This document shows, piece after piece, positions 8,438 through 38,127 of a stretch of 43,498 bases of DNA (its first letter is position 1; each line of letters begins with the position of its first letter). A program made the translations under genes and the position numbers. Origin of the DNA: Patescibacteria group bacterium. GTDB lineage: Bacteria; Patescibacteriota; Patescibacteriia; UBA2591; UBA6264. The stretch covers positions 1-43,498 of the forward strand of contig JAHIMV010000081.1 in NCBI GenBank assembly GCA_018896315.1, written 5' to 3'. Below the pieces are notes generated by a model that made no database searches, was not told the DNA's origin, and was given only the letters and a program-made list of their open reading frames with translations.

Positions 8438-8552
8438 ACGTAATACTAATCTACGAATGACATACGAATACTACGAATATTAGTATAATTAGTATCAATT
8501 CGTCCTAGACCCGTTCGGGACGGACTAGGGTATATTGGCATTGATTTTTTTT
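8438..8552. repeat. family D copy 2 (before nrdD) with a nested 27-nt GC hairpin
   Basis: ctacgaatgacatacgaatactacgaat / attagtataattagtatcaattcgt[..]atattggcattga. Insert at 8504..8530. Confidence 0.8.
8504..8530. repeat. 27-nt GC-rich hairpin nested in family D copy 2
   Basis: cctagacccgttcgggacggactaggg interrupts aattcgt|atatt, which is continuous in the other D copies. Confidence 0.7.
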
Positions 8553-11500
8553 ATGAAGCAACAAATAATTAGAATAAGAAGAAGAAACGGTCGTTTAGCT
8601 AAATTCGATCAAGAAAGAATTACCACAGCAATTTATCAGGCCGTTACAGCTGTTTCTGAAGAAGACGGCAAATTGTCCCAAAAATTATCTAATCAAGTAG
8701 TTAAAATAATTAGTAGGCGCTTTAAAGAGAGGGTTCCAACCGTAGAAGATGTTCAAGACGTTGTTGAAGAAGTTTTAATTCGTGCTGATTTAACAGAAAT
8801 TGCCAAAGCTTATATTATTTATCGCGAACAAAGGAGGAAACTTAGAGAAACAGTTAAGGTTACCAATGAAAGCTTGGGCATGGTGGATCAATACTTAAAA
8901 GAAGTTGATTGGGAAGTAAAGGAGAACGCCAACATGACATATTCTTTACAAGGGTTAAATAACTATATTTCTAATGGCGTAACAAAAAGATATTGGTTTG
9001 AAAAAGTTTATCCTTCAGAAATTAGAGAATCAGCTGAAGGAGGGGATTTTCATATTCATGACTTGGGGATTTTAGCGCCGTATACTTTTTTTGGCAAAGA
9101 AACAGTTGTTATTAAATTGAATGGAAAAATTAAGTTAGTTTCTTTAGAAAGTTTATATAACAATATAATTCAAAAAGAAGATTTTCTTAATAAAAAAGAT
9201 CAAGTTTTCGCTAAATATCCTCGTAATTTATTTATTTTAGATAAAGAAGGTTGGACCAAGGTTTCCCGATTAGTAAAAAAGAAAAAACAAAGAGAAATGC
9301 GTTTTATAAAGTCAGAACAGGGAAGGAGTGTTATTGTTACCGATAATCATCCTTTTATTGTAAAAAATCAAAAAAATGGGAAACAAAAAGAAATTTTGGC
9401 AAGTGAGGTTCAAGAAAAAGAACATTTATCTTTGAGTTGCTTTTTGCCTTCTTTACTTTCTTCTGAAAAATTATTTACTAAAAAAGAGATATATTTAGCT
9501 CAAGAATTAATAGATAAAGATTATCAAGATTTCTTTTTAGAAGGATATAAGTGGCAGGATTTTATAGAAAACTGGGGAGGATCTCTTAAGGTAAAAGGAA
9601 CCTTAAGTGTTTCTAATAAATCTAATAGTTTAGATAATTATTTTGAACTTTCTGAGGATTTTGGTTATTTGGTAGGAATTTTTATTGCAGAGGGCCATTA
9701 TCATAGCTGGCGGATGGAAATAACCTTAGGAGAAGAGAAAATAATAAAAAAGGTACAAAAAATTTGTTCCAATTTAGGAATAAGAACTTATATTAACAAG
9801 CACGAACAAACTAAGCGAATATCTATTAATTGCAGCACTTTAAAACTTGTTTTTGAAAAAGTCTTCCAAATAAAACCTTTTAGCCAAAATAAAACTTTAC
9901 CAATAGATATTCTAAATTACAATTTTGATTTTATAAAAGGGCTAATTGCTGGAATTATTGACGGAGATGGTAATGTTAGTACCCAAGGAAGCCAAATTAT
10001 TATTAGGACAGCTTCAAGAACGATGTTAGAACAAATGGCCATTTTATTGCAATTTTTTGGCATTATTTGTCGAGATAGAGCTATTGAAGGAGTTGGCAGT
10101 AAAAGGGTTTATAATGGCAGGGAGATTATTCAAAAATTTCCTCTTTACGGAATATCTTTTTCTAAAAAAGAAAAATTAGATTTACCTTCTTTTAAATATC
10201 AAAAAGCTAATGTAGCCCAGAAAAATTGGCGTGTAGAAGAATATGGTTGGAATAAAGTTTTAAACAATAAATCCACCTCTATAGCAGATGATTTTATTTA
10301 TGATATTACCACTGATTCACATACATTCCTTTGTAATGGCTTATTGGTTCATAATTGCGTGGGGTGGAGTTTAGAGGACATATTGCGCAAAGGATTCACT
10401 GGTGTTTATGGTAAAATTTCTTCAAAACCAGCCAAACATTTAAGAGTAGCTTTAGGCCAGTTAGTTAACTTTTTTTACACACTTCAAGGGGAAGCAGCAG
10501 GAGCAATTGCTGTTTCTTCTTTTGATACTTTTTTGGCTCCTTTTATTCGTTATGATAAATTAACTTATTCTCAAATAAAACAGGCCATGCAGGAGTTTAT
10601 GTTTAATTGTAATGTGCCAACTCGAGTTGGGTTTCAATGTATGTCAGAAGATACAGAAATTTTAACTAAAGATGGGTGGAAAAATTATCGTCAGGTTAAA
10701 AAAGGAAGCATTATTGCTACCTTTAACATTGAAAAGGGTTTTATTGAATATTTGCCAGTTAATAATGTTTTTACTAAGAAATACAAAGGAATAATGTATA
10801 ACTTAAAGAATAGAATTAGCGATCAATTAATTTCTCCAGAGCATAGGGTAGTGAGAAAAATGTTTAATTCAGAAAGCTATACTTTAGAAAAAATAGAAAA
10901 AGTTTTAAGCCTAAAATCACCGTTTATGGTGCCAGTGGGAAGTGAAGGAAATGTTTTAGGAGATGATAAATTAGATGAAAATATAGTTAAATTAACAGCT
11001 TGGTTAATAGCGGAAGGAACAATAGACAAAGGTAGACGAGGGAGTGGAAGAATTAGTATTTACCAATCAAAAGAAAAAAACCCTGAAAATTATGAAGAGA
11101 TTAATTTTTTGTGCCATAATTTAGACTTAAAATATACCGAAAGAATGCAAAGAGGATTAGGTGCTGATTGTAATGTTATTCGATTTAACGCAAATAGCAC
11201 TAGAAAAATTTTAAATTATTTTAATAGCAATAAAAATAAAGGTATTAAATTTATTCCAGACAGTATACTTAATTCAGATGTAGAAACTTCAAGATTGTTT
11301 TTAGAGACATATATTAAAGGTGATGGACATGATGGATGTAAAATCACCACTACTGAAGAAAAAATCAAAGATGGTTTGCTTCAAGTTATAGTTAATGCTG
11401 GTTATGGCGCTACGGTTTTAGTTCGCAATCCTGATAATGATCTGTCAAAAAAAGATAGATATATTATTAGACTCATTAAACATAAAGATACTTATATTAA

Positions 11501-14500
11501 TCAAATTAAAAAAGTTAATTATCAAGGAATTATTTGGTGTCCCAACACTAAAAATGAGACAGTTGTCGCGAGAAGAAAAGGAAAAGTATTTATTACTGGA
11601 AATACGCCTTTTACAAATATTACACTTGATTTAAATCCACCTAAAAATTTAGCTAAATTACCAGTGATTGTCGGAGGAAAAACTAAAAAAGAAAAATATG
11701 GAGATTTTCAAAAAGAAATGGATTTATTTAATAAAGCTTTTTACGAAGTAATTATGGAAGGAGATGCCACTCAAAGGGTTTTTACTTTTCCAATACCGAC
11801 CATCAATATTACCAAAGACTTTGACTGGGATAATCCTAATTACAAATCAATATGGGACGCAACGGCTAAATATGGGATTAATTATTTTTCTAACTTTATT
11901 AATTCAGAGTTAGATCCAGAAGATATCAGAAGTATGTGTTGCCGGTTGCGCTTAAACAATAAAGATCTTCATCATCGAGGGGGTGGGCTTTTTGGCTCAG
12001 CTCCATTAACAGGTTGTTATGATAAAGAAACAGAAATTTTGACTGAAAGCGGTTGGAAGTTTTTTAAAGATTTAACTAAAAACGAGAAAGTGTTTACCTT
12101 AGCTGAAAATAACGAAATTGAGTTACACAAGCCAAGAAAAATTTTCAAATATGATTATAAAGGGGAAATGTATCAATTTAAAGCTAAATCTTTGGATTTA
12201 TTAGTTACCCCAAACCACCGGATGGTGATAGACCAAAGATATAAAGATAAAAGAAGGTTTGTTGAAGCTAAAGACTTAAAGCCAGCTAATCATCGGATTC
12301 CTAAGCAGGGTGTATGGAAAAGAGATGAGATAGAACACTTTATTTTGCCTGGGATTGAATTTACAAAATACGGGAGACAAGGAATAACTCCTTATCAGGT
12401 ATTCAGAGAGGCTTTAAAAATAGAAATGGATAATTGGCTTGAATTTTTTGGATTTTGGTTGGCAGAGGGCTGTGCTGACAATAAAAATATTGCTAAACGT
12501 CATGGTTATAGGGTGATAATCACACAGGTTAATAAGAAGAAAAATAGAGAAATCCAAAAAGTTTTAGATTGTTTACCCTTTAATTATTATATAGAAAGAA
12601 AGATAAATTTTGTAATTTGTAATAAACAGCTTTGGACTTATTTACGGCAATTCGGAAATAAATATCAAAAGTTTATTCCAAAGGAGATTAAAAATTTAGG
12701 TAAGAGACAATTGAGAATTTTGTTTAATTGGATGGTTAAGGGCGATGGCCATATTAGAAAAACTACTGGACAGATTAATTATTGGACGTCTTCCGAAAAA
12801 TTAGCCGATGATTTGCAAGAAGTAATTCTAAAAATAGGATGGCTTGGCACTATAAGTGCTCGAAAGAGAAATATATCTCAAATTAGAGGCAGAAAAGTAA
12901 AGTCGGGCATTGTTTATACAATAGGAGTACAAAAATCAAAACATTATAGGTTAAGAAAAAATAGCATAAAAAAGATTTATTATAAGGATAAAGTGTATTG
13001 TTGTGAAGTAAGAAATCATACTGTTTTCGTAAGGAGAAATGGAAAAGTTAGTTGGTGCGGGAATTCAATTGGGGTAGTAACCATAAATCTTCCGCGAATT
13101 GGCTATTTAACCAAAACAAAAAAGGAATTTTTTAACAAATTGGAAAATTTAATGGATTTGGCCAAAGAAAGCTTAGAAATAAAAAGAAAAACTTTGGAAG
13201 ATTTTATTGAAAAAGATCTTTATCCTTATTCAAAATTTTATTTATCTGATATTAAGAAATTAAGAGGACAATATTGGGCAAATCATTTTTCAACCATTGG
13301 TCTGGTGGGAATGAACGAAGCTTTACTTAATTTTTTAAAAAAAGATATGATTTCAGATGAGGGGCAGAAATTTGCTCAAGAAGTTTTAGATTTTATGAAT
13401 CAACGTTTACTTGATTACCAGAAAGAAACTAAAAATATTTATAATTTAGAAGCAACACCGGCAGAGGGCACTAGCTATCGTTTAGCTAAAAAAGACAAAG
13501 AACATTATCCTCAGATTATTACGGCCGGAAAAGATGTTCCTTATTATACTAATTGTGTATCAGATGATACAGATATCTTAACTAAAGAAGGATGGAAAAG
13601 ATATAACGATGTAAAAGTCAGAGACGAAATTCTTACATTAAATATGGATAGGAAAATATTAGAGTATCAAAGGATATTAAATATTCATACTCAATATTTA
13701 GATAATAAACCAATGTTTAATATCAAATCTCAAAAACAAGATCAACTAATAACCCCAAATCATATGGTTGTATATGATGGAGACAGAAAAGGAAAATATA
13801 GTTTAGCAACACCTAGAAATTTACCTTGGAGAATAATTATTCCAATGGCAGGGAAAATAAATCAATACACTAAAGAGATAGATGATGACATTATAAGGAT
13901 GATAGGATGGATAATTACTGAAGGACATTTTGAAACAGATTGTAATGCAATTAGAATAACACAAGCTGAATGGTGTAATAAAAATAAATTTAAGGAGATA
14001 GGAGAGATATTAAAAAAACTTAAAGTTAAATTTAAAATACATGGAGATAAGAGAGGAAGATCAATTTTTAGAATTTCAGCTTCTGATGGAATAAAAATAA
14101 GAAGTAAGTATATATCAAACAAGCATATCCCAAGATGGTGCTTAAATGAATTAGACTATAGACAACTGAACATTTTATTGGAAACCATGATGAAAGGAGA
14201 CGGAAGTATAAGTAAACACTCTAAATATTTTTGTTCTGGTGATAAACAATTAATAGACGAATTTCAAGAACTATGCATTAAGACATGCAGAAGAGCCGTT
14301 ATATGTGATTATAGAGAAATGACTGCTTGCTATCATGCAGTTCCTTCTGATTTCCATCATACTGAAATAAATAAAAATAATATTAAAGAAATAAAACACA
14401 CAGGCATTGTTTGGTGTCCAGAAGTGGAGAACCATACTTTTGTAGCAAGAAGAAACGGGAAGCCGTTTATAACAGGTAATTCAACCCAATTACCAGTTGA

Positions 14501-16115
14501 TTACAATGGAGATTTATTTAGTGCTTTGGCCTTACAAGATAATTGTCAGACAAAATATACTGGAGGATGTATTGAGAAAGGGAATAAAGTTTTAACCAAC
14601 AAAGGGTTGTTGAATATAGAATATATAGTGAAGAATTTTAATAAACTCAAACCAATTAAGGTTTTAGGTTATAATATTAAAAAAGGAATCAGTGAATGGG
14701 ACAGCGTTGTTGATGCTGTTTTTGTTGATGTTAAGAAAAAAAATAAGATAAAAATAAAAGCAGAGAGAGGTTTAGATATTATTACTTCTGATTGGCATCC
14801 ATTCTTTGTTTTAGAAAGAATTAAAGTTAATTCAATTTGTCCTGTTTGTCAGCAAAAAGTAGAAAACATTAAAGGTTTTGCTAGCCATCTGGGGCGTAAC
14901 CCAAAGTGTAGGGAAGAGTATTTGTTAATGTTTAAATATCAAGTGTTAGAGAAAAGGGCGGATGAATTGAAAAAGGGCGACTATATTTTACAAAATTTTG
15001 ATAATTTATATCCAGAGAAATCTACGGCGTTAAATAACGATTTGATGTGGTTGATAGGTTTTTTCATCGGCGATGGGTGCATTTCAAAGTTTATAGATAA
15101 TAGAGGTGGGCACAATTTAGAGAAATATAGAGTTCGTTTTCATAGCGAAAACCAAAGAGCATTACAAAAAATTGTTAGGATAATTTCAGAGCATTTCCAT
15201 ACAGAAGTTAAAGTTATAAAAAACGACAAAAGAAGTAAATCTCTGAGAGAGGTTACTATATCTAAAAAGGTTGTTTTAGATTTTTTCTTCAAATATGGTT
15301 TTAATTCTGGCAAAAAGGTTTATAATATTTCTGTCCCTCAAAAAGTAAGGGAAAATTTTAACAAAAGTAATGTTTTTGCTTTTTTGTCTGGTCTAATAGA
15401 CAGTGATGGACATATTAGTAAAAGAGATGGTGATTTTGAATATCAGACGGTTTCTGATAAATTAGCCGAAGACATCTTAGAGATTTCTACTCGAGCAGGA
15501 TTAATGATTAGTAAGAGCCTAAAAGCAAGTAAAAGAAAAAATGAAGTTAATATATATAGATTGAGAATTCCGCGATACCAAATGACGAGGATAAAAGATA
15601 AGTTGAATGATTCAGTTAATTGTTCAAAAATTAAAACGAAGTTGTCGGATAGAAAAAAGCGTCAGCTTCCGGTAATAAGAGTAACACAGATTTCAAAAGT
15701 TGATATGAAAGATAACCAATTCTACGATTTAACAACAAAAAAGAATCACAATTATTTAGCAGGTAAAAATACTTTAGTTTTTATCCATAATACTGTTTTT
15801 CATGCTTTTTTAGGGGAAAGAATTTTTAATTCAGAATCAGTTAAAAGTTTAATTAAAAAAGTCTTTGTAAAATTTCGTCTCCCTTATTTTACTTTAACTC
15901 CTACATTTAGCATTTGTCCAACTCATAATTATATAAATGGCAAACATTTTACATGTCCTGAATGTGGAGAGAAAACAGAGGTTTATTCAAGGGTTGTTGG
16001 ATATTTACGTCCTATTCAACAATGGAATAAAGGCAAACAAGAAGAGTTTAAACAAAGAAAAGTGTTTGACGTAGAAAATAAAAAGAATCTGATTTCGTCA
16101 GAACTCCAAAATTAA
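8553..16115 (+). CDS. nrdD: anaerobic (class III) ribonucleoside-triphosphate reductase interrupted by five inteins
   Basis: First ATG at 8553 (the track start 8535 is a TTG inside a repeat). Exteins carry an ATP-cone N-terminus, FHIHDL, CVGWSL, TPFTNITLD, MCCRLRL, SIGVVTINLPRIG, YYTN-S-TQLPV, YTGG-TVFH, C-terminal CPECG and the glycyl-radical motif RVVGYLRP. They sum to about 707 aa. Confidence 0.95.
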   Translation: MKQQIIRIRRRNGRLAKFDQERITTAIYQAVTAVSEEDGKLSQKLSNQVVKIISRRFKERVPTVEDVQDVVEEVLIRADLTEIAKAYIIYREQRRKLRETVKVTNESLGMVDQYLKEVDWEVKENANMTYSLQGLNNYISNGVTKRYWFEKVYPSEIRESAEGGDFHIHDLGILAPYTFFGKETVVIKLNGKIKLVSLESLYNNIIQKEDFLNKKDQVFAKYPRNLFILDKEGWTKVSRLVKKKKQREMRFIKSEQGRSVIVTDNHPFIVKNQKNGKQKEILASEVQEKEHLSLSCFLPSLLSSEKLFTKKEIYLAQELIDKDYQDFFLEGYKWQDFIENWGGSLKVKGTLSVSNKSNSLDNYFELSEDFGYLVGIFIAEGHYHSWRMEITLGEEKIIKKVQKICSNLGIRTYINKHEQTKRISINCSTLKLVFEKVFQIKPFSQNKTLPIDILNYNFDFIKGLIAGIIDGDGNVSTQGSQIIIRTASRTMLEQMAILLQFFGIICRDRAIEGVGSKRVYNGREIIQKFPLYGISFSKKEKLDLPSFKYQKANVAQKNWRVEEYGWNKVLNNKSTSIADDFIYDITTDSHTFLCNGLLVHNCVGWSLEDILRKGFTGVYGKISSKPAKHLRVALGQLVNFFYTLQGEAAGAIAVSSFDTFLAPFIRYDKLTYSQIKQAMQEFMFNCNVPTRVGFQCMSEDTEILTKDGWKNYRQVKKGSIIATFNIEKGFIEYLPVNNVFTKKYKGIMYNLKNRISDQLISPEHRVVRKMFNSESYTLEKIEKVLSLKSPFMVPVGSEGNVLGDDKLDENIVKLTAWLIAEGTIDKGRRGSGRISIYQSKEKNPENYEEINFLCHNLDLKYTERMQRGLGADCNVIRFNANSTRKILNYFNSNKNKGIKFIPDSILNSDVETSRLFLETYIKGDGHDGCKITTTEEKIKDGLLQVIVNAGYGATVLVRNPDNDLSKKDRYIIRLIKHKDTYINQIKKVNYQGIIWCPNTKNETVVARRKGKVFITGNTPFTNITLDLNPPKNLAKLPVIVGGKTKKEKYGDFQKEMDLFNKAFYEVIMEGDATQRVFTFPIPTINITKDFDWDNPNYKSIWDATAKYGINYFSNFINSELDPEDIRSMCCRLRLNNKDLHHRGGGLFGSAPLTGCYDKETEILTESGWKFFKDLTKNEKVFTLAENNEIELHKPRKIFKYDYKGEMYQFKAKSLDLLVTPNHRMVIDQRYKDKRRFVEAKDLKPANHRIPKQGVWKRDEIEHFILPGIEFTKYGRQGITPYQVFREALKIEMDNWLEFFGFWLAEGCADNKNIAKRHGYRVIITQVNKKKNREIQKVLDCLPFNYYIERKINFVICNKQLWTYLRQFGNKYQKFIPKEIKNLGKRQLRILFNWMVKGDGHIRKTTGQINYWTSSEKLADDLQEVILKIGWLGTISARKRNISQIRGRKVKSGIVYTIGVQKSKHYRLRKNSIKKIYYKDKVYCCEVRNHTVFVRRNGKVSWCGNSIGVVTINLPRIGYLTKTKKEFFNKLENLMDLAKESLEIKRKTLEDFIEKDLYPYSKFYLSDIKKLRGQYWANHFSTIGLVGMNEALLNFLKKDMISDEGQKFAQEVLDFMNQRLLDYQKETKNIYNLEATPAEGTSYRLAKKDKEHYPQIITAGKDVPYYTNCVSDDTDILTKEGWKRYNDVKVRDEILTLNMDRKILEYQRILNIHTQYLDNKPMFNIKSQKQDQLITPNHMVVYDGDRKGKYSLATPRNLPWRIIIPMAGKINQYTKEIDDDIIRMIGWIITEGHFETDCNAIRITQAEWCNKNKFKEIGEILKKLKVKFKIHGDKRGRSIFRISASDGIKIRSKYISNKHIPRWCLNELDYRQLNILLETMMKGDGSISKHSKYFCSGDKQLIDEFQELCIKTCRRAVICDYREMTACYHAVPSDFHHTEINKNNIKEIKHTGIVWCPEVENHTFVARRNGKPFITGNSTQLPVDYNGDLFSALALQDNCQTKYTGGCIEKGNKVLTNKGLLNIEYIVKNFNKLKPIKVLGYNIKKGISEWDSVVDAVFVDVKKKNKIKIKAERGLDIITSDWHPFFVLERIKVNSICPVCQQKVENIKGFASHLGRNPKCREEYLLMFKYQVLEKRADELKKGDYILQNFDNLYPEKSTALNNDLMWLIGFFIGDGCISKFIDNRGGHNLEKYRVRFHSENQRALQKIVRIISEHFHTEVKVIKNDKRSKSLREVTISKKVVLDFFFKYGFNSGKKVYNISVPQKVRENFNKSNVFAFLSGLIDSDGHISKRDGDFEYQTVSDKLAEDILEISTRAGLMISKSLKASKRKNEVNIYRLRIPRYQMTRIKDKLNDSVNCSKIKTKLSDRKKRQLPVIRVTQISKVDMKDNQFYDLTTKKNHNYLAGKNTLVFIHNTVFHAFLGERIFNSESVKSLIKKVFVKFRLPYFTLTPTFSICPTHNYINGKHFTCPECGEKTEVYSRVVGYLRPIQQWNKGKQEEFKQRKVFDVENKKNLISSELQN
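9084..10355 (+). mobile_element. intein 1 of nrdD (424 aa, LAGLIDADG homing endonuclease); begins with Thr
   Basis: Inserted between ..DLGILAPY and CVGWSL. Block A TFFGKETVVIKLNG, block B VTDNHPF, LAGLIDADG motifs GYLVGIFIAEGH and LIAGIIDGDGN, C-terminus LLVHN followed by +1 Cys. Confidence 0.85.
10638..11603 (+). mobile_element. intein 2 of nrdD (322 aa, LAGLIDADG)
   Basis: Inserted between ..TRVGFQ and TPFTNITLD. Starts CMSEDTEILTKDGW, block B ISPEHRV, motifs LTAWLIAEGT and ETYIKGDGH, ends VARRKGKVFITGN followed by +1 Thr. Confidence 0.9.
12015..13064 (+). mobile_element. intein 3 of nrdD (350 aa, LAGLIDADG)
   Basis: Inserted between ..GSAPLTG and SIGVVTINLP. Starts CYDKETEILTESGW, block B VTPNHRM, motifs FFGFWLAEGC and NWMVKGDGH, ends FVRRNGKVSWCGN followed by +1 Ser. 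Confidence 0.9.
13554..14480 (+). mobile_element. intein 4 of nrdD (309 aa, LAGLIDADG)
   Basis: Inserted between ..VPYYTN and STQLPVDY. Starts CVSDDTDILTKEGW, block B ITPNHMV, motifs MIGWIITEGH and ETMMKGDGS, ends VARRNGKPFITGN followed by +1 Ser. Confidence 0.9.
14568..15791 (+). mobile_element. intein 5 of nrdD (408 aa, LAGLIDADG, with extra Cys/His knuckle)
   Basis: Inserted between ..QTKYTGG and TVFHAFLGE. Starts CIEKGNKVLTNKG, block B ITSDWHPF, motifs LIGFFIGDGC and LSGLIDSDGH, ends NTLVFIHN followed by +1 Thr. Contains CPVCQQKVENIKGFASHLGRNPKC. Confidence 0.9.
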
Positions 16116-16257: not shown

Positions 16258-17022
16258 ATGGTTTTTAGAGGATGGCAAAAAACCTCTTTGAATGAATGGC
16301 CGGGCAAAGTTTGTTCGGTTGTTTTTCTCCAGAGTTGTAATTTTCGTTGCTCTTTTTGTTATAATTACGATCTTGTTTTGAATCCCAAAAAATTACCTTT
16401 AATTAAAGAAAAACAAGTTTTAAATTATTGCAAAAAAAACAAGGATTTGCTTGACGGAGTAATGATTACCGGCGGTGAACCATTAAAAATCAAAAATCAA
16501 AAATCAATCCTTCGACTACGCTCAGGATTGATGGTGAGCAAAGTCGAACCATCAAAAATCAAAAATAATTTATTAGAATTTATCAAAAAAGTAAAGAAAT
16601 TAGGGTTAAAAGTTGGCGTGGAAACTAATGGTTCTAATCCTGAAATGATTGATTTTTTGATAAAAAATAAATTAGTTGATTATTTAGCTATGGATGTAAA
16701 GGCTCCTTTGATTCAAGAGAAGTACAATCAGATGACCGGCGTAAAAGTTGATTTGAAAAAAATAAAAAAAAGTATTAGAATTATTATTAATTCAAACATT
16801 GAATCTGAATTTCGCACTACTGTTATTCCAGGATTATTAAATGAGGACGATATTTTAAAAATTGCTAAAGAGATAAAAGGAGGAAAAAAATATTATTTAC
16901 AGCAGTTTCAAAAGGGCGAAACATTAGGACAACTACCTAAAATAGATGTTTATTCTCAGAAATGGTTTAAAGAAATAAAAGAGAAAATCAAAAATTTAAT
17001 TGATATAGAATTAAGAATCTAA
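16258..17022 (+). CDS. nrdG: anaerobic ribonucleotide reductase activating protein (radical SAM)
   Basis: CNFRCSFCYN (CxxxCxxC) and ITGGEP, immediately downstream of nrdD. Carries an 81-nt in-frame repeat insertion at 16486..16566. Confidence 0.9.
   Translation: MVFRGWQKTSLNEWPGKVCSVVFLQSCNFRCSFCYNYDLVLNPKKLPLIKEKQVLNYCKKNKDLLDGVMITGGEPLKIKNQKSILRLRSGLMVSKVEPSKIKNNLLEFIKKVKKLGLKVGVETNGSNPEMIDFLIKNKLVDYLAMDVKAPLIQEKYNQMTGVKVDLKKIKKSIRIIINSNIESEFRTTVIPGLLNEDDILKIAKEIKGGKKYYLQQFQKGETLGQLPKIDVYSQKWFKEIKEKIKNLIDIELRI
16486..16566 (-). repeat. 81-nt in-frame repeat insertion inside nrdG (50-nt hairpin element plus aaaatc flanks)
   Basis: 16504..16553 is the exact reverse complement of 34841..34890. 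Flanked by aaaaatcaaaaatcaaaaa / aaaaatcaaaaat. Read as KIKNQKSILRLRSGLMVSKVEPSKIKN. Confidence 0.9.
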
Positions 17023-24974: not shown

Positions 24975-25018
24975 CAAAAATTTTAAAGTTGAGATTAGCG
25001 AAACTGCAGAAATTTTTG
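24975..25018 (+). repeat. H1 hairpin module, copy after the rpsJ stop
   Basis: caaaaattt ..agcgaa.. aaatttttg (9-bp stem). Preceded by taa-agag and followed by ttagaaaaccttt plus core A. Confidence 0.7.
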
Positions 25019-25031
25019 TTAGAAAACCTTT

Positions 25032-25089
25032 ACCCTGTTAAATAATTTCGCTTTTAGCGAAATTGCCGCAAGGCGGCATTTAACAGGGT
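25032..25089 (+). repeat. family A Y-shaped 58-nt core, copy a (rpsJ-rplC spacer)
   Basis: accctgttaaat[aatttcgc-tttt-agcgaaatt][gccgc-aag-gcggc]atttaacagggt: a 12-bp outer stem enclosing two hairpins. Confidence 0.9.
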
Positions 25090-25337
25090 TCTCGAAAATC
25101 TAACAAAATTTTCATCGTTCCCTAAACTCGAAAATTTTGAGATTTTCGGAATAATTTGATCAGGGGAAAGCAAGGTTAAAAGTGAACTCTTAAGTTTCAT
25201 AAGAGTTATTGTTTAATCAAACTTTTTCTTAATTTTGAGGTTCAAAATTCTCTAAAGAGATGACAATTTAGTCAAATTTTTCACAGCCAGGCTTAAGGTC
25301 AGAGAAATTTGGTCTCAAACCTGGTTTTTTAATACCT

Positions 25338-25955
25338 ATGAAATTCATTCTTGGGAAAAAAATAGAAATGTCCCAAATTTTTAAAGGGGACAAGGTTATT
25401 CCGGTAACAAAAATTCAAGCCGGCCCTTGTTTGATTACTCAAATTAAAACACAAGAAAAAGACGGTTATGAGGCTATTCAGATTGGATTTGCTAAGAAAA
25501 GAAAGAATACTAAATCATTATTAGGTCATTTAAAAAAGGGTTTAGCTGACAAAGAGTATAATCGATATTTAAAAGAATTTAAAACAGAAAGGGGTGATTT
25601 AAAAATTGGAGATAAGATAAAAGTTGATATTTTTCAACCTGGAGATAAAATAAAGATTGTTGGTACCTCTAAAGGAAAAGGGTTTCAAGGAGTAGTTAAG
25701 CGACATGGTTTTCATGGAGCATCAGCTACACATGGAACCAAAGATCAAGAAAGAATGCCTGGTTCAATTGGAGCCACTGGTCCTGCCAGAGTTTTTAAAG
25801 GAAAAAAAATGCCTGGAAGAATGGGAGGCAAACAAGTTACAGTTAAAATTTTAGAGATTATAGAGGTTAATCCAGAAGAAAATTTATTATTAGTCAAAGG
25901 ATCTGTTCCTGGGGCAAGGAACTCATTATTAGAAATTACTCAAGTAAAATATTAA
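25338..25955 (+). CDS. rplC: 50S ribosomal protein L3
   Basis: ILGKKIEMSQIF.., GKGFQGVVKRHGF, conserved cluster position. Confidence 0.93.
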   Translation: MKFILGKKIEMSQIFKGDKVIPVTKIQAGPCLITQIKTQEKDGYEAIQIGFAKKRKNTKSLLGHLKKGLADKEYNRYLKEFKTERGDLKIGDKIKVDIFQPGDKIKIVGTSKGKGFQGVVKRHGFHGASATHGTKDQERMPGSIGATGPARVFKGKKMPGRMGGKQVTVKILEIIEVNPEENLLLVKGSVPGARNSLLEITQVKY

Positions 25956-26650
25956 TGTTAAAAGTTTCAGTTTACAATCAAGAAGGAAAAGTAATTGGAC
26001 AAGAAGAATTAGATCCTGAAATTTTTGGATTGGAAAGTAAACCTGATTTAATTCATCAAACCGTAGTATCTCTTATGGCTAATCAGCGCCATGCTTTTGC
26101 TCATGTTAAAACTCGTTCAGAAGTACGGGGAGGAGGAAGAAAACCTTGGAGACAAAAGGGGACTGGTCGGGCTCGAGCAGGCACAATTCGTTCACCTTTG
26201 TGGCGGGGCGGTGGAATCACTTTTGGTCCAGATAAAAATAGGAATTATTCTCAGAAAATTAATAGAAAAGCTAAAAGACAAGTGCTTTTTATGTGTCTTT
26301 CTGATAAAGTTAAAGAAGAAAGAATGTATGTTTTGGATAAGTTAGAAATGCCTGAAATCAAAACCAAAAAGTTTACTCAAATTTTATTTAAGTTGATTCC
26401 TGAATATAAAGACAAGACTTCCGCCAAAGGCGGATCCGCCTCCGGCGGAAAAAAAATCCTTTTTGGCTTGCCTGAGAAGGATTTAAATATAATTAGATCT
26501 GTACGAAATATTAAAGGTTTAAAAACTATGCCGATTATTAATTTAAATATTTTAGACTGTTTAAAGGCAGACTATTTATTAACCACTTTAGACGGTGTAA
26601 AAAAAATTCAAGAACATTTTAAAATAGATGGCTCACCATTAAATAAATAA
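25955..26650 (+). CDS. rplD: 50S ribosomal protein L4
   Basis: RSEVRGGGRKPWRQKGTGRARAGTIRSPLWRGGG. ATG overlaps the rplC stop by 1 nt. Contains a GC-rich hairpin pair in frame at 26421..26448. Confidence 0.93.
   Translation: MLKVSVYNQEGKVIGQEELDPEIFGLESKPDLIHQTVVSLMANQRHAFAHVKTRSEVRGGGRKPWRQKGTGRARAGTIRSPLWRGGGITFGPDKNRNYSQKINRKAKRQVLFMCLSDKVKEERMYVLDKLEMPEIKTKKFTQILFKLIPEYKDKTSAKGGSASGGKKILFGLPEKDLNIIRSVRNIKGLKTMPIINLNILDCLKADYLLTTLDGVKKIQEHFKIDGSPLNK
26421..26448 (+). repeat. GC-rich double-hairpin motif inside rplD
   Basis: ccgcc-aaa-ggcgg at ccgcc-tcc-ggcgg, translated SAKGGSASGG. GC-rich island in an AT-rich gene. Confidence 0.75.
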
Positions 26651-26735
26651 AACATGGGAATTTTCACCCAGTTTAGAAATTTAATGGGGTAAAAGAAGTA
26701 ATTGATTGAAAATTAGATATATTAAAAATACTTTT

Positions 26736-27218
26736 ATGGCAGAAAAAAGACTTAAAAAATTTCTAACGGGGTTTAAAAGAAAAATAAAGCCAGCGGTTAA
26801 GAAAGAAGAAGTTAAAAAGGAAAAAGTGGAAAAGGCAAAGGAAATAGAAAAAGATGAGAAAATAGAAGATAAAAAGCAACAGAAATCTAAAACAGAAATA
26901 AAAAAAACTGTTAAAAAATTAATACAAAGACAAGGAGTTGATATCTCAATTTTACTAAGACCAATTATTACAGAAAAAGCAACTGACCAAGAGGTCAAGG
27001 GATGCTATATTTTTGAAGTTAATTCAAAGGCAAACAAAATTTCAATAAAAAAAGCAATTGAACAAATTTACGGAGTCAAACCCTTAAGAGTAAATATTAT
27101 TCGAGTACGTGGGAAAAAAGTAAGATATGGGCGTTCAACAGGTAAAACAAAGGCATGGAAAAAAGCTTTAGTTTTTCTAAAAAAAGGAGATAAGCTGCAG
27201 TTTGTGCAGAAATCCTAA
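26736..27218 (+). CDS. rplW: 50S ribosomal protein L23 with ~70-aa Lys/Glu-rich N-terminal extension
   Basis: L23 core ILLRPIITEKA..FEV...ANK..IK.A.E..YGVKP..VN begins about residue 75. First ATG is at 26736 (track start 26706 is TTG). Confidence 0.85.
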   Translation: MAEKRLKKFLTGFKRKIKPAVKKEEVKKEKVEKAKEIEKDEKIEDKKQQKSKTEIKKTVKKLIQRQGVDISILLRPIITEKATDQEVKGCYIFEVNSKANKISIKKAIEQIYGVKPLRVNIIRVRGKKVRYGRSTGKTKAWKKALVFLKKGDKLQFVQKS

Positions 27219-27395
27219 ATAATAAATAACAAATAACAAACAATATCCAATGACCAAAATCCAAATGACCAAAACAAATACGTTTAGAATTTAGAATTTT
27301 GCCCCGGCCTTCGTAGCCGAAGCTACTTCGGCGGAGTAGGCAATTTGTTTAGAATTTGGTGCTTGGTGTTTGGAATTTGGAGCGAAGCGACTATT
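27219..27395. repeat. structured spacer (rplW-rplB) ending in the gagcgaagcga..ATG motif
   Basis: ccaaaatccaaatgaccaaaacaaat versus atttgtttagaatttggtgcttggtgtttggaatttgg arms, GC hairpins in the centre. 3' end ggagcgaagcgactattATG resembles 830..849. Confidence 0.55.
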
Positions 27396-28238
27396 ATGCT
27401 TAAAATATCTAAACCAACAACTCCAGGTAGGAGAAAAATGAGCGTGGTTGATACTAGTGGACTATCAAAAGTGAGACCATTAAAGAAATTGGTTAGTATA
27501 AGAAAACAAAAAGCAGGCCGAAGCAAAGGAAAGATTACTGTTCGTCACCAAGGCGGGGGAGAAAAAAGATTTTACAGAAAGATTGATTTTAGGCAAGATA
27601 AATTTGATATCCCGGCGAAAGTTAAAACATTGGAATATGATCCAAATCGTTCTGCTTGGATTGCTTTATTACATTATACGGACGGAGAAAAGAGATATAT
27701 ACTTGCTCCGCACAGTCTTAAAGTAGGTGATGAGATTATTAGTTCAAAAAAGAAGATTGATGCAAAATTAGGCCATCGCATGCCTTTAAAATACATTCCA
27801 GTGGGCATGGCCATTCACAATATAGAATTAATGCCAAATCAAGGTGGAAAAATTGTTCGTTCGGCTGGTAATTCAGCTATTTTAATGGTTGTGAATGATG
27901 GGTTTGCGCAAATTAAACTGCCCTCATCTGAAAGAAGGCTTGTTAAAGAAGATTGTTTAGCTAGTTGCGGTCAGGTTAGTAATCCAGAGTGGCGATTTAT
28001 TCGCTGGGGAAAAGCTGGTAGGATGCGTCATAGAGGAATTAGACCTTCAGTTCGCGGTAAAGCAATGGCCCCAGTGGCTCATCCACACGGTGGAGGAGAG
28101 GGTAATTCACCTATTGGTTTAAAAAATCCTAAAACCCCTTGGGGAAAACCAGCCTTAGGGCCAAAGACTAGAAAAAAGAAAAAATGGACTAATAAATATA
28201 TTGTCCAAAGAAGAATTAAAAAAAGAAGAAAAAAGTAA
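27396..28238 (+). CDS. rplB: 50S ribosomal protein L2
   Basis: MLKISKPTTPGRRKMS.., HPHGGGEG. The track ORF start 27345 lies inside the upstream repeat, so the internal ATG at 27396 was chosen. Confidence 0.93.
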   Translation: MLKISKPTTPGRRKMSVVDTSGLSKVRPLKKLVSIRKQKAGRSKGKITVRHQGGGEKRFYRKIDFRQDKFDIPAKVKTLEYDPNRSAWIALLHYTDGEKRYILAPHSLKVGDEIISSKKKIDAKLGHRMPLKYIPVGMAIHNIELMPNQGGKIVRSAGNSAILMVVNDGFAQIKLPSSERRLVKEDCLASCGQVSNPEWRFIRWGKAGRMRHRGIRPSVRGKAMAPVAHPHGGGEGNSPIGLKNPKTPWGKPALGPKTRKKKKWTNKYIVQRRIKKRRKK

Positions 28239-28248
28239 AGGGCTTTCT

Positions 28249-28282
28249 TAAAAATTTCAAGTTGTAGACGTAGAAATTTTTA
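28249..28282 (+). repeat. H1 hairpin module, copy after the rplB stop
   Basis: taaaaatttc .. gaaattttta (10-bp stem, different sequence, same position). Preceded by taa-agggcttt. Confidence 0.7.
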
Positions 28283-28295
28283 TTAGAAAACCTTT

Positions 28296-28353
28296 ACCCT
28301 GTTAAATAATTTGTAAAGCAAATTAAAAATCAAAAATTTTTGTTTAACAGGGT
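28296..28353 (+). repeat. family A core, copy b (rplB-rpsS spacer), divergent inner hairpins
   Basis: Same outer stem accctgttaaa..tttaacagggt. Both inner hairpins are replaced by different self-complementary sequences (aatttg-taaag-caaatt; aaaaat-caa-aaattttt). Confidence 0.85.
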
Positions 28354-28383
28354 GCTCGAAAATTAATAAATTAATTTTTTCGC
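28354..28383 (+). promoter_or_regulatory. leader module L1 (gctc + AT palindrome + ttcgc-ATG) before rpsS
   Basis: gctcgaaaattaataaattaattttttcgc then ATG. No SD-like purine tract. Confidence 0.8.
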
Positions 28384-28680
28384 ATGGGAAGAAGTTTGAA
28401 AAAAGGACCTTGGGTTGACCCAAGATTACTCAAAAAAATTTCCAATTTAAAAAGAGGAGATAAAACAATAATTAAAACCTGGTCACGTAATTCAACAATT
28501 ACTCCGGAAATGATTGGTTTTACAATTGGGGTCCATAATGGTAAGACACATTTATCAGTATTTATTGTTGAAAATATGGTCGGGCACAAGCTTGGAGAAT
28601 TTTCTCCGACCAGAAAATTTGTCAAACATGGAGGTAAGATGCAAAGAGGATTAGAAGCAGCCGTTAAGAAATCAAAATAA
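28384..28680 (+). CDS. rpsS: 30S ribosomal protein S19
   Basis: [34 protein letters not shown]. Confidence 0.95.
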
Positions 28681-28883
28681 TCCCTCACCCTTTGGCGATA
28701 ATACTTCGCATTAGTGCTTCGCATTTTTAAACAAGTGTATTTAAAATTAAAAATAAAAAATCAAAATGCAAAATTTAGGTATCAAAAATTTTTCTTGAAA
28801 ATTTTTGATGATTGTATTTTATTTAATTTTAACATTTTTAATTGTCATTTTGATATTTGATATTTACATTTTACATTTATATT
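28681..28883. repeat. AT-rich long-hairpin spacer (rpsS-rplV), E-like
   Basis: Central 11-bp hairpin atcaaaaattt/aaatttttgat (28781..28809) flanked by an A-rich left arm and a quasi-complementary T-rich right arm (..ttttaattgtcattttgatattt). Confidence 0.6.
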
Positions 28884-29438
28884 ATGCAAGTAAAAGCTAA
28901 AGGAAAATATTTAAGAATATCCAGTAAAAAGATGAGGCTGGTAACAGACCTAATTAGAGGAATGGACTTAAAAGATGCCTTAGATTCTTTAAATTTTGTT
29001 CCTAAAAAGTCAGCCCGTTTTATTAACAAGGTTTTAAAGTCAGCTTTAGCTAATGCAGAACATAATTTTGATTTAAAAAAAGAAAATCTTTTTATTAAAG
29101 AAATTTTTGTTAATGAAGGGCCTACTCTTAAGAGATGGAGGCCAAGAGCTTTTGGTCGGGCCGGACAGGTTCGTAAAAGAAGCTCACATTTAGAAATTAT
29201 TTTAGGGGAAAAAATTCCTAGTTCAGAGACCAGATCTGTTAAAACAAAAATTAAAGAACCAATAATTGAATCTATTTCTAAAGATAAGATTGAAGAAAAA
29301 AAGCCGGTGGAAGAAACAGAAGAAGAAACGTTAAATCGACTTCAAGGAAAACATCAATCTAAACCAAATTATTACCAAAAAAAGGGTAAAGGGTTTAGAG
29401 GGAGTTTAAAAAAGATTTTTAGAAGAAAAACTATATAA
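28884..29438 (+). CDS. rplV: 50S ribosomal protein L22 with ~70-aa C-terminal extension
   Basis: MQVKAKGKYLRISSKKMRLV.DLIRG..V..AL..L.F, RA.GRA..VRKR.SH. Internal ATG at 28884 chosen over the track start 28857. Confidence 0.88.
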   Translation: MQVKAKGKYLRISSKKMRLVTDLIRGMDLKDALDSLNFVPKKSARFINKVLKSALANAEHNFDLKKENLFIKEIFVNEGPTLKRWRPRAFGRAGQVRKRSSHLEIILGEKIPSSETRSVKTKIKEPIIESISKDKIEEKKPVEETEEETLNRLQGKHQSKPNYYQKKGKGFRGSLKKIFRRKTI

Positions 29439-29448
29439 AGAGCTTTGT

Positions 29449-29481
29449 CTGAAATTTGGAGAACTAGCGAACAAATTTCAG
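29449..29481 (+). repeat. H1 hairpin module, copy after the rplV stop
   Basis: ctgaaatttg ..agcgaa.. caaatttcag (10-bp stem). Preceded by taa-agagctttgt. Confidence 0.7.
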
Positions 29482-29494
29482 TAACAAAACCTTT

Positions 29495-29622
29495 ACCCAG
29501 CACTTATTTTGCGAAGCAAAAACAAAATTTTATATATAACAAGATAAGATAGGTTTATTTCTCGCGAAAGAGCGTTAAAACACTCTTTCGCTAAGACTCA
29601 CTTGGCAGAATAAGTGCTGGGT
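29495..29622 (+). repeat. family B element, copy 2 (rplV-rpsC spacer), diverged
   Basis: Same termini (acccagcacttatt / aataagtgctgggt) and the same inner gcgaaagag hairpin, with several substitutions and indels. Confidence 0.85.
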
Positions 29623-29687
29623 GCTCAAATTTGTAACGAAATTTCCTTCGTTACTTCGTAACTCGTAAATTTAGACAAATTTAGCAT
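29623..29687 (+). promoter_or_regulatory. leader module L2 variant before rpsC
   Basis: gctcaaatttgtaacgaaatttccttcgttac...gacaaatttagcat then ATG. 5' caaatttg and 3' caaattt co-vary relative to the other copies. Confidence 0.7.
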
Positions 29688-30332: not shown

Positions 30333-30378
30333 TATTTTTAAGTCCAGAGGACGTAGAAAATTCAGCTACAGAATTGCT

Positions 30379-30508
30379 ACCCAGCACTTATTTTGCGAAA
30401 CAGAAACAAAATTTTATATATATAACAAGGTAAAATAAGTTTATTTTTCGCGAAAGAGCGTTAAAACACTCTTTCGCCAAGACATACCTAGCAAAATAAG
30501 TGCTGGGT
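30379..30508 (+). repeat. family B element, copy 3 (rpsC-rplP spacer)
   Basis: Reads identically to 7747..7876. Confidence 0.9.
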
Positions 30509-30539
30509 GCTCAAAAATTAATAAATTAATTTTTTTCGC
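30509..30539 (+). promoter_or_regulatory. leader module L1 before rplP
   Basis: gctcaaaaattaataaattaatttttttcgc then ATG. Confidence 0.8.
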
Positions 30540-30959: not shown

Positions 30960-30962
30960 AAA

Positions 30963-31148: not shown

Positions 31149-31149
31149 T

Positions 31150-31401: not shown

Positions 31402-31430
31402 AGCGAAGGTTTTTTGGTAACAAAATCGTT

Positions 31431-31488
31431 ACCCTGTTAAATAATTTCGCTAAAAGCGAAATTGCCGCAGGGCGGCATTTAACAGGGT
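31431..31488 (+). repeat. family A core, copy c (rpsQ-rplN spacer)
   Basis: As copy a, but the loop of hairpin 1 is aaaa instead of tttt and hairpin 2 is gccgc-agg-gcggc. Confidence 0.9.
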
Positions 31489-32346: not shown

Positions 32347-32356
32347 AGGGCTTTGT

Positions 32357-34074: not shown

Positions 34075-34623
34075 ATGTCAAGAATTGGTAAAAAAATTAT
34101 TTCTGTTCCAGAAAATGTTGAAATAAAAGTACAAGATCAACAGATTTTAGTCAAAGGGCCAAAAGGCGAATTAAAGCAATTTTTGCCAGATTTTGTTAAA
34201 ATTGAAATAAAAGATAATCAATTGAAAGTTTTAGTTAAAAATCCTGAAGAAAAAGAACAAAAAGCTTGTTGGGGGACGTTTGCTAGTCTGATTTCTAATA
34301 TGATTCAAGGGGTAACCCAAGGATTTAAAAAAAAACTAGAATTAGTAGGGGTGGGTTATCGGGCAGAAAAACAAGGAGATAAGATTATTCTTAATGTTGG
34401 TTTTTCCCATCCAGTAGAATATTTAGTTCCTAAAAATATTGAAGCAGACGTTGAACAAAGAACAATTATTATTCGGGGATTTGATAAACAGTTAGTAGGA
34501 GAAACAGCAGCACAGATTAGGAAGTTTAGAAAACCAGAACCATATAAGGGAAAGGGAATTAAATATTCCGATGAAGTAATTCGTCGAAAAGCTGGCAAAA
34601 AGGTTGCTGGAGCAGGAACATAG
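34075..34623 (+). CDS. rplF: 50S ribosomal protein L6
   Basis: MSRIGKKIISVPENVEI......I.VKGPKGEL, GVGYRA, PEPYKGKGI.Y. Confidence 0.95.
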   Translation: MSRIGKKIISVPENVEIKVQDQQILVKGPKGELKQFLPDFVKIEIKDNQLKVLVKNPEEKEQKACWGTFASLISNMIQGVTQGFKKKLELVGVGYRAEKQGDKIILNVGFSHPVEYLVPKNIEADVEQRTIIIRGFDKQLVGETAAQIRKFRKPEPYKGKGIKYSDEVIRRKAGKKVAGAGT

Positions 34624-34911
34624 AAAAATCAAAAATCAAAAATCAAAAATCAAAATTATTTTATTAAAAAATCAAAAAAGAACAAGTTCCTCTCAAGCGA
34701 GAGTAAAATGGAAAACGTAAAAAGGAATTGCTGATTGCCGATTGTTGATTGTTTGGAAAGATAGACAAAGGTTTCAATTAGCAATTAACAATTAAGACTA
34801 GTTTTTAATTTTTACATTTTAATTTGTCATTTTACATTTTGATGGTTCGACTTTGCTCACCATCAATCCTGAGCGTAGTCGAAGGATTGATATTTAAATT
34901 TTACATTTTCT
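34624..34911 (+). repeat. family E element, copy 1 (rplF-rplR spacer), carrying a nested 50-nt hairpin element
   Basis: (aaaatc)n left arm, centre gaacaagttcctctcaagcgagag..aattgctgattgccgattg..caattagcaattaacaatt, right arm tttacattttaatttgtcattttacattttga. Confidence 0.85.
34841..34890 (+). repeat. 50-nt hairpin element nested in family E copy 1
   Basis: gatggttcgactttgctcaccatcaatcctgagcgtagtcgaaggattga. Absent from the otherwise collinear copy 2 (..ccattttga|tatttaaatt..). ttga occurs on both sides. Confidence 0.9.
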
Positions 34912-35277: not shown

Positions 35278-35499
35278 ATCAAAAATCAAAAATCAAAAAT
35301 CAAAATTATTTCATTAGAAAACTAAATAAGAACAAGTTCCTCGCAAGCGAGAGTAAAATGGAAAACATAAAAAAGAATTGCTGATTATTCGGAAAGATAT
35401 ACAAAAATGTCAATTAGCAATTAACAATTAAGATTAGTTTTTAATTTTTACATTTTAATTTGTCATTTTCCATTTTGATATTTAAATTTTACATTTTCT
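35278..35499 (+). repeat. family E element, copy 2 (rplR-rpsE spacer)
   Basis: Collinear with copy 1 apart from a short internal deletion and absence of the nested hairpin. Ends ..tatttaaattttacattttctATG exactly as copy 1 does. Confidence 0.85.
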
Positions 35500-37861: not shown

Positions 37862-38127
37862 AAAAATCAAAAATTAAATATCAAAAATCAAAATTATTTT
37901 ATTAGAAAATTAAATAGGAACAAGTTCCTCGCAAGCGAGAGCAAAATGGAAAACATAAAAAGGAATTGCTGATTGCTGATTGCCGATTGTTGATTGTTTG
38001 GAAAGATAGACAAAGGTTTCAATTAGCAATTAATAGCTAAGAATAGTTTTTAATTTTTACATTTTAATTTGTCATTTTCCATTTTGATATTTACATTTTG
38101 CATTTGACCGAGTGTTAACGAGGAAAT
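37862..38127 (+). repeat. family E element, copy 3 (secY-adk spacer)
   Basis: Collinear with copies 1 and 2 through ..gtcattttccattttgatattt, then diverges into an SD-containing adk leader. Confidence 0.85.

Follow-up and report, generated by a model that had tools for sequence, protein, structure and literature searches.

A probable miniature palindromic mobile element in frame in nrdG of a Patescibacteria bacterium, and its relatives in other phyla

The described elements that most resemble the one reported here are the SDR repeats (SDR1-8), which Elhai and colleagues reportedly found in Nostoc punctiforme and its relatives in 2008. In that account, the units are said to measure 21-27 nt and to lie often in tandem heptamer repeats, to insert into one another and to share a hairpin marked by compensatory changes, and their mobility is said to have been deduced from orthologous sites that are filled in one genome and empty in another. 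We describe an element of comparable dimensions in a contig of 43,498 nt (JAHIMV010000081.1; the whole of it is called the window below) from a low-GC genome (about 31%) of the Patescibacteria, or candidate phyla radiation (CPR). Its 44-nt body, in which two inverted 14-nt boxes enclose a 10-nt loop, is bordered on each side by a 4-nt core and occurs twice in the window, in frame in nrdG, which encodes the activase of the anaerobic ribonucleotide reductase, and in the spacer between rplF and rplR. With a probability of roughly 70%, we read the nrdG segment as a copy of a mobile element that is translated as a tolerated loop.

The present family shares with the SDRs its tiny size (24-nt half-units, 44/48 nt in full), its heptamer context, its nesting (here in a spacer repeat termed family E) and a hairpin backed by compensatory changes. 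It differs in range, since it spans at least eight phyla whereas the SDRs are described as a repeat of Nostocaceae only (PMC5861425). The SDRs are not known to insert frequently in frame into housekeeping genes, nor to have a core complementary to the loop, as the present family does. The present family may include, or equal, one of the SDR families.

Translated selfish DNA has a precedent in the Rickettsia palindromic elements (RPEs; Ogata et al. 2000), which lie in frame in unrelated essential genes (PMC10969869). The present family is likewise palindromic, in frame in unrelated protein genes and predicted to be compatible with the host fold. However, RPEs measure about 100-150 bp, fall into families RPE-1 to RPE-10 and belong to Rickettsia and relatives, whereas the present element has 44/48 nt and an unrelated sequence; its loop-target complementarity is also a property that has not been described for RPEs. 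PARCEL repeats resemble it in being palindromic coding repeats whose patchy spread across phyla suggests horizontal transfer, but they form 25-residue tandem domains in surface proteins, in contrast to single 16-codon insertions in housekeeping genes.

Two copies in the window and their empty sites

The features of the window on which the argument rests are the following, each with the evidence used.

16258..17022, + strand: nrdG, anaerobic ribonucleotide reductase activase, a radical S-adenosylmethionine (SAM) protein; open reading frame (ORF) of 254 residues, assigned from Pfam, synteny and an AlphaFold (AF2) model; host of the coding copy
16485..16507, + strand: left heptamer array, AAAAATC in 3.3 units (Tandem Repeats Finder (TRF), period 7, 100% matches); its last TCAA, 16504-16507, is the left core
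16508..16551, + strand: 44-nt element body, nrdG copy, consisting of TCC (16508-10), box b TTCGACTACGCTCA (16511-24), loop S GGATTGATGG (16525-34), box b' TGAGCAAAGTCGAA (16535-48) and the arm CCA (16549-51); box positions, fold, identical spacer copy, metagenome copies
16552..16566, + strand: right TCAA core (16552-16555), running into the right heptamer array, ATCAAAA in 2.3 units (sequence; TRF 16551-16566, 100% matches)
34621..34911, + strand: family E copy 1 (E1), a spacer repeat of about 240 nt that hosts the nested insertion (repeat families D3/D4, alignment, TRF)
34839..34842, - strand: core TTGA (TCAA on the - strand) beside the spacer copy (sequence)
34843..34886, - strand: second 44-nt body, in the rplF-rplR spacer, in the orientation opposite to the nrdG copy (sequence match); on the + strand it reads TGG, box (34846-59), loop CCATCAATCC (34860-69), box (34870-83), GGA
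34887..34890, - strand: second TTGA core beside the spacer copy (sequence)
35475..35478, + strand: empty site, a single TTGA, in family E copy 2 (E2; alignment)
38084..38087, + strand: empty site, a single TTGA, in family E copy 3 (E3; alignment)

Positions 16503-16557 of the + strand are the exact reverse complement of 34837-34891, a 55-nt identity of which none is expected by chance. The original prediction had reported an exact 50-mer, which we recover at two places, one per strand, against none expected in 100 shuffles; similarity between the two loci reaches 80 nt at 89%. The products of the genes bordering the spacer match ribosomal proteins L6 (rplF) and L18 (rplR). The body can be written TCC-TTCGACTnnGCTCA-GGATTGATGG-TGAGCnnAGTCGAA-CCA with TCAA on both sides, so that on the nrdG strand the unit reads TCAA, then TCC-TTCGACTACGCTCA-GGATTGATGG-TGAGCAAAGTCGAA-CCA, then TCAA. 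What is present or absent as a unit is 48 nt, the body plus one TCAA core, or 16 codons.

Each 14-nt box repeats the other in inverted orientation, and together they form a long hairpin. Its proposed stems, TTCGACT/AGTCGAA and GCTCA/TGAGC, are those of the minimum-energy fold (-9.2 kcal/mol as DNA, -14.8 as RNA, z about -3). The left TCAATCC is complementary to GGATTGA in the loop and the right CCATCAA to TTGATGG, with an overlap of both pairings on the 4-nt core. The loop is thus complementary both to the left core and arm and to the right arm and core, and the unit can therefore adopt either one long box/box hairpin or two 7-bp hairpins.

That the spacer copy is a nested insertion, as had been proposed, is confirmed by its sister repeats. 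At 35471 (E2) and 38080 (E3) the sequence is CATTTTGATATTTA, or ...TTTTGATATTT... without a break, whereas E1 carries 48 extra bases at the TTGA that is single in both. The arms of E1 are themselves heptameric, the 5' arm being (AAAAATC)4.6 and the 3' arm a degenerate inverted heptamer array. The nrdG site can be compared in the same way. The nearest NrdG orthologues (75-88% identity, 232 residues) lack the whole segment, the nrdG DNA of loci L119/L120 reading GGT GAA CCA TTA ATT CAG AAG AAA GAA GAC at this position, and the 64% identical NrdG of locus L118 has the heptamer array without the hairpin (AAA ATT AAA AAT CAA AAG TCA AAA ATT AAA AAT), the point that corresponds exactly to TCAA-body-TCAA of the window being occupied by one TCAA. 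Filled and empty homologous sites are thus available for both copies: E1 against E2 and E3, and the window's nrdG against L118 and against L119/L120. The landing sites were a TCAA of the heptamer array in nrdG and a TCAA/TTGA of a heptamer-like arm in the spacer repeat. These comparisons show that the unit, which we take to be a miniature, non-autonomous mobile DNA, landed twice recently in the source genome, as reflected in the 55 identical nucleotides.

The insert in NrdG and in other proteins

The host ORF matches Pfam PF04055 (Radical_SAM) and PF13353 (Fer4_12) and lies directly downstream of nrdD, in the order nrdD-nrdG-htrA-prfA-comEC that is common to its relatives. An identical protein is encoded in the independent assembly GCA_022013275.1. 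The composite of body and heptamers was said to add 27 residues after the conserved GGEP motif. Its 81 nt do make up 27 codons (residues 77-103), but these follow GGEPL, and since the heptamer array takes the place of five codons, NrdG is longer than its nearest orthologues by a net 22 residues (254 vs 232). The array itself had been described as hexameric; its period is 7 on both sides of the body.

The body is translated in nrdG as ILRLRSGLMVSKVEP. The AF2 model of NrdG (mean pLDDT 88, pTM 0.86) has a single low-confidence stretch, residues 88-102, which lies inside the insert, and it places the insert between the GGEP-bearing strand and the next helix. A PDB sequence search with NrdG returned no match and a fold search was used instead, in which the best match was pyruvate formate-lyase activase (PFL-AE; 3C8F, TM 0.73-0.76). 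The post-GGEP loop is rich in K and N and variable in length in many NrdG homologues, which carry inserts of 9-47 residues at this place. In other Patescibacteria, different small palindromes occupy the same loop, often between heptamers of the AAAATCA type, and a second palindrome-bearing loop follows DxKAP. On the model, the insert appears to form a surface loop without fixed structure that follows the GGEP motif, at which SAM is bound; it is specific to the lineage, in frame and most likely tolerated. A disordered surface loop at this position would leave the nrdG gene probably still functional.

Alternatively, the insertion may have inactivated nrdG, which would then be a pseudogene in decay. 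The position directly after the SAM-binding motif would suit this, as would the reading frame, SILRLRSGLMVSKVEPS (LRLRSGLMV), which is rarer and more hydrophobic than the two hydrophilic frames that dominate among copies in ORFs and is used by 2 of about 34 copies inside long ORFs. However, the ORF is intact and keeps CX3CX2C and GGEP, the neighbouring nrdD retains an intact reading frame, the fold is predicted with confidence outside the insert, and many homologues carry their own inserts at the same loop. We regard decay of the gene as very unlikely.

In-frame insertion is not peculiar to nrdG. Stop codons are confined to those frames, two in number, in which the core is read as TGA, leaving four of the six frames open; because the 48-nt unit is also a multiple of three, the nrdG copy is read through, and copies elsewhere often are. 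In-frame hosts confirmed by Pfam include leucyl-, arginyl- and alanyl-tRNA synthetases (LeuRS, ArgRS, AlaRS), polynucleotide phosphorylase (PNPase), pyruvate phosphate dikinase (PPDK), PilM/FtsA, a ProA-like dehydrogenase and a class-III aminotransferase with three tandem copies in frame. The proposal that a miniature mobile element can land in both coding and non-coding DNA is thereby supported.

The neighbouring nrdD (8535-16115) is unusual in its own right, encoding 2526 residues as against 1019 in an 88%-related genome (L119). Several inserts in it resemble inteins, with three N-terminal blocks of the form CxxxxT.ILT..GW at residues 702, 1161 and 1674 and HNC/HNT junctions; a partial nrdD copy at L187 has LAGLIDADG and Intein_splicing Pfam matches.

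A family with loops matched to their flanks

Further copies, which the original prediction called for, are numerous. A scan of species-representative genomes, one per species, with the pattern TTCGACTnnGCTCA-N10-TGAGCnnAGTCGAA yielded at least 117 loci with at least 125 copies of the two boxes. Hosts among the matches listed are Omnitrophota, Planctomycetota, Patescibacteria, Chloroflexota, Cyanobacteria, Firmicutes, Proteobacteria, Spirochaetes and Bacteroidota; the family is abundant in Omnitrophota and Patescibacteria, the latter represented by Curtissbacteria, Microgenomates, Doudnabacteria, Liptonbacteria and Saccharibacteria, and it reaches at least eight phyla. Cultured cyanobacterial isolates with copies include Nostoc linckia z4, Crocosphaera and Coleofasciculus, and copies also occur in Nostoc, Calothrix and Cyanocohniella, one of them within an (ACCGTCA)n array. 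The exact subfamily of the window was found in metagenomes at 63 loci with 68 copies, with TCAA immediately 5' in 60 of the 68 and immediately 3' in 64, between outer flanks that are unrelated. Some copies point along the direction of transcription and others against it; they occupy four reading frames and are found in coding and non-coding DNA.

No match to the element was found among 2.9 million viral contigs, and plasmids gave a single weak match, in Nostoc. At Rfam gathering thresholds only four tRNAs pass in the window and none lies on the element, for which the best sub-threshold match at permissive E-values has E = 4.9. The searchable literature yielded no description of the box sequences, which are contained in none of about 8 million papers, or of in-frame palindromic elements in these phyla. 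Two trivial origins were considered. A derivation from tRNA was suggested by the resemblance of GGTTCGACT..GCTCACCA to a T-loop and 3' end, and is ruled out by the lack of a T-stem and by a 'CCA' arm that varies between subfamilies. A sequencing adaptor or assembly artefact is ruled out by loops that vary together with compensating flanks, by orthologous positions across species, by the copies in isolate genomes of cultured cyanobacteria and by two independent assemblies of the source organism.

Loops differ between subfamilies, and the flanks co-vary with them. Both arms and both cores are perfectly complementary to the loop in 90 of 167 unique copies, representing 25 distinct loops (a loop and its reverse complement being counted as one), and at least 15 core tetranucleotides, including TCAA/TTGA, TTAA, TCGA, CCAA, CTAA and AGCT, occur among 60 canonical copies from species-representative genomes. 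Statistics were computed on 97 unique 52-mers, non-canonical copies included, against 500 shuffles and slid controls. Pairing in the flank-loop helices amounts to 82.9% for one and 79.7% for the other, as compared with 54.9% and 52.7% in shuffles, and the covariation score is 0.709 as compared with 0.25-0.26 in shuffles and at most 0.27 in slid controls; none of the 500 shuffles reached the observed values. Since the arms are part of the inserted body, their pairing with the loop is internal to the element. The core, however, is the target, and because it pairs with the loop, the target tetranucleotide is the complement of the centre of the element's own loop. Thus, the proposal that ttga/tcaa flanks record a short target-site duplication holds in that the tetranucleotide is shared by both flanks, but not in the sense of an arbitrary target duplicated, and one of the two flanking cores may belong to the element.

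In many genomes besides that of the window, the element sits in register inside tandem heptamers, each of which combines the element's core with 3 nt. Examples of such units are AAAAATC in the window and at L086, L145, L162 and L179, ACCGTCA in Nostoc, and TTCCTGG, GTTTTGA and AAATCCA in Omnitrophota and Planctomycetota; the context recurs at L011, L035, L037, L078, L080, L086, L093 and others. The heptamer-body composite of nrdG reappears almost base for base in the LeuRS gene of a Curtissbacteria genome. Heptamer arrays may simply supply the element with many targets, or they may be products of the same machinery. These contexts invite the view that nothing here is mobile, and that both window copies were produced when A-rich heptamer tracts underwent gene conversion or recombined illegitimately, the NrdG insert being a low-complexity expansion of the loop. 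The shared heptamer surroundings of the two copies (80 nt at 89%) and the K/N-rich, length-variable loop of NrdG homologues would suit such a process, but it does not account for 68 copies of an identical subfamily with the same TCAA borders and unrelated outer flanks, for a presence or absence that is precise to 48 nt, or for the same body in many phyla, and we consider it extremely improbable. The original prediction was to fall if there were no further copies or empty sites, if the flanks did not share ttga/tcaa, or if NrdG homologues universally contained the segment; each point was checked, and all outcomes favoured a mobile element.

The window itself is unusually rich in period-7 arrays of several units (among them AAAAATC, ATTTTGC, ATTGCTG, CAATTAA and TTAAATC), for example at 734, 2200, 27216, 33359, 34624, 34727, 35276, 37862 and 37965. 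They lie mostly in spacers of the ribosomal-protein operon and resemble the STRR heptamer repeats of cyanobacteria.

Copies also occur in tandem with a period of 48 nt, a single locus holding one, two, or at least three. Such arrays lie inside genes for an aminotransferase and a glycosyltransferase (L022, 3490-3623; L088, 7153-7386), and copy number differs between related assemblies (L126, L152 and L176 vs L168 and L180). At L022 the inner junctions have the core TTAG whereas the outer ones have TTGG, suggesting growth by duplication of the unit rather than by repeated insertion. Lone 24-nt modules, TTAATGG-box-CCATTAA, exist at L127/L133, which makes the 44-nt body resemble two modules joined head to head. 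A metagenome-assembled genome (MAG) of Chloroflexales, CALANA01 (among loci L001-L117), holds dozens of copies of a variant with the same boxes, in which the flank-loop pairing is shifted and longer (cgggacaagct with AGCTTGCCC) and which is embedded in a larger repeat.

Candidate mechanism, comparisons and significance

How such a unit might move is suggested by the IS200/IS605 insertion sequences (IS). Work by Barabas and colleagues in 2008 and Guynet and colleagues in 2009 on IS608 and ISDra2 is said to show that the targets TTAC and TTGAT are recognised by pairing with an internal guide, and these elements reportedly have hairpin ends, excise seamlessly and do not truly duplicate their target; IS608 ends on its right side in TCAA. 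By analogy with the guide-directed, single-stranded 'peel and paste' of IS200/IS605 and REP/RAYT, the conserved hairpin of the boxes would be recognised by an enzyme acting in trans, which base pairing with the loop would lead to its target tetranucleotide; the right core would belong to the element, the left core would be the target, and excision would be seamless. The likeness lies in a target of 4-5 nt complementary to an internal guide, as the core here complements the loop centre. The differences are that IS200/IS605 elements have at least 1.2 kb, encode TnpA, and carry distinct left and right hairpins with guides at the hairpin foot, whereas in the present family both ends would take their guide from one loop, and the element-bearing loci yielded no TnpA. 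Among copies with the loop GGATTGATGG, the subfamily of the window, mismatches to the loop affect the left core at six independent loci and the right core at two, a weak hint that the left core is the target.

A second parallel is offered by REP sequences and their doublets (REPINs), short imperfect palindromes mobilised by RAYT (TnpA_REP) transposases (PMC3116915, PMC3733652). A REPIN is, like the present element, a mobile doublet of inverted modules, and is moved in trans by a single-strand nuclease that recognises hairpins. In contrast, REPs are extragenic, carry a conserved GTAG/CGTC tag and are associated with a RAYT gene, whereas the present family has many intragenic copies and its element-bearing loci showed no RAYT; the position corresponding to the tag is variable (GCGnAG: GCGTAG, GCGAAG, GCGCAG, GCGGAG or GCAAAG). 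The element thus fails the defining tests of three known classes: that of a MITE (miniature inverted-repeat transposable element), as it has no terminal inverted repeats and no parent IS in the 1.28 Mb of element-bearing loci; that of a REP, as it has no fixed tag and is not extragenic; and that of an RPE, by size and host. We rate as new its cross-phylum range, its routine in-frame insertion in core genes and its loop-encoded target.

Several observations weigh against the mobile-element explanation or its guided single-strand scheme. First, no transposase or recombinase is linked to the element in the element-bearing loci (1.28 Mb). A phmmer search of 4,936 ORFs from these loci with IS608 TnpA gave no match, a weak negative because the query was approximate; all-against-all clustering of ORFs near copies returned only housekeeping families and no recurrent enzyme family. 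Paired inverted copies about 1.1 kb apart in the Chloroflexales MAG were considered as the ends of an autonomous parent and ruled out, since they enclose ordinary genes and no transposase. Second, no strand rule is visible, because the two window copies are oppositely oriented on one replichore; since the element is also near-symmetric, orientation is uninformative. Third, at loci L186 (TCGA/TCGA) and L031 (CTGA/CTGA) the two cores agree with each other but not with that of the loop, which fits a true 4-bp target duplication better than an IS200/IS605-like model. Fourth, Omnitrophota copies at orthologous positions in a MiaB-like gene of three species (L063/L065/L083) and in RsmE (L031/L032) keep their flank-loop pairing through compensatory or wobble changes, and in copies this old such changes could mean that the structure is selected for a host function and is not purely selfish.

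The third observation would be expected of a classical cut-and-paste MITE, for which a DDE transposase encoded elsewhere would make a 4-bp staggered cut at TCAA and insert the body there, and gap repair would duplicate the target. Loop and target would then match because the enzyme prefers that sequence, or because of where the loop came from, and not through guidance by base pairing. Direct 4-nt repeats do flank nearly all copies, and the two exceptional loci would then be true duplications at near-cognate sites. Yet TCC... at one terminus is no inverted repeat of ...CCA at the other, and it is the internal boxes that are inverted; the 1.28 Mb of loci revealed no parent IS; deviations confined to one flank outnumber those on both (11 vs 5); and the core tracks the loop over at least 15 cores and 25 loops, for which protein-only specificity offers no simple explanation. 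We judge this account improbable.

The fourth observation bears on whether the element has been domesticated as a structured sequence with a host function, at the level of DNA or RNA, such as a protein-binding hairpin or a signal for mRNA stability or recombination, and is kept by selection instead of persisting as an active parasite. Conservation of the 14-nt boxes across phyla and the strong covariation favour such a role, as does the pairing maintained at the orthologous Omnitrophota sites, where either the pairing is selected or the sites were re-colonised by each genome's own subfamily. However, the element occurs in both orientations, in four frames and in coding as well as non-coding DNA, is absent from close orthologues, lacks an Rfam match and varies in tandem copy number at one locus. 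Domestication is quite improbable in our estimation, and it overlaps with the mobile-element explanation, as spread by transposition followed by co-option is possible.

A mobile element therefore remains our explanation of the nrdG segment, while the guided single-strand mechanism specifically is a doubtful addition to it. A wider proposal, which we put forward tentatively, is that the family, previously undescribed, comprises the smallest known transposable units, with a 44-nt body of two 24-nt modules and a loop-specified target, moved by an enzyme common to Patescibacteria, Omnitrophota, Planctomycetota, Chloroflexota and Cyanobacteria. Under this proposal, the same machinery could generate or exploit tandem heptamer arrays of the STRR type, and 16-residue loops would be written routinely into essential enzymes.

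The window holds other small repeats. A second palindromic repeat of 46 nt, TCCGCCGGAGGCGGATCCGCCTTTGGC.., occurs at 3137-3182 and 26413-26458 (93% complementary), both copies in frame in genes and in opposite orientation. One lies in the G/F region of a DnaJ-like ORF (FSAGGGSAFGRG) and the other, as SAKGGSASGG, in an ORF (25955-26650) that we take to encode a putative ribosomal protein L4; related CCGCC/GGCGG palindromes are inserted in NrdG homologues of other Patescibacteria (L122). The D1 family (24987-36585) is a 137-nt repeat in six copies with a palindromic core of about 60 nt (TACCCTGTTAAAT...ATTTAACAGGGT); these lie in the spacers that separate ribosomal-protein genes, and a copy in inverted orientation is found at 39895-39960. 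Other spacer repeat families are found at 7721-7883/29467/30353 and at 5353-5440/24481/33806/38769. Spacers in the syntenic relative (L119/L120) measure 4-120 nt, as compared with up to 253 nt, repeat-filled, in the window, and the relative has a diversity-generating retroelement (bAvd and reverse transcriptase) between an MBL-fold gene and adk that the window lacks.

In sum, an odd single insert has become a searchable family, defined by two invariant 14-nt boxes, a variable loop and co-varying flanks. The family provides a natural experiment on the movement of extremely small DNA elements, with the apparent rule that the target is the complement of the loop centre. The reduced genomes of Patescibacteria, together with those of Omnitrophota, carry translated selfish DNA in core enzymes such as tRNA synthetases, PNPase and NrdG, which bears on gene calling, orthologue alignments, phylogenomics and structure prediction for these phyla. 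It also links the heptamer arrays of cyanobacteria, long unexplained, to the same kind of element in unrelated phyla.

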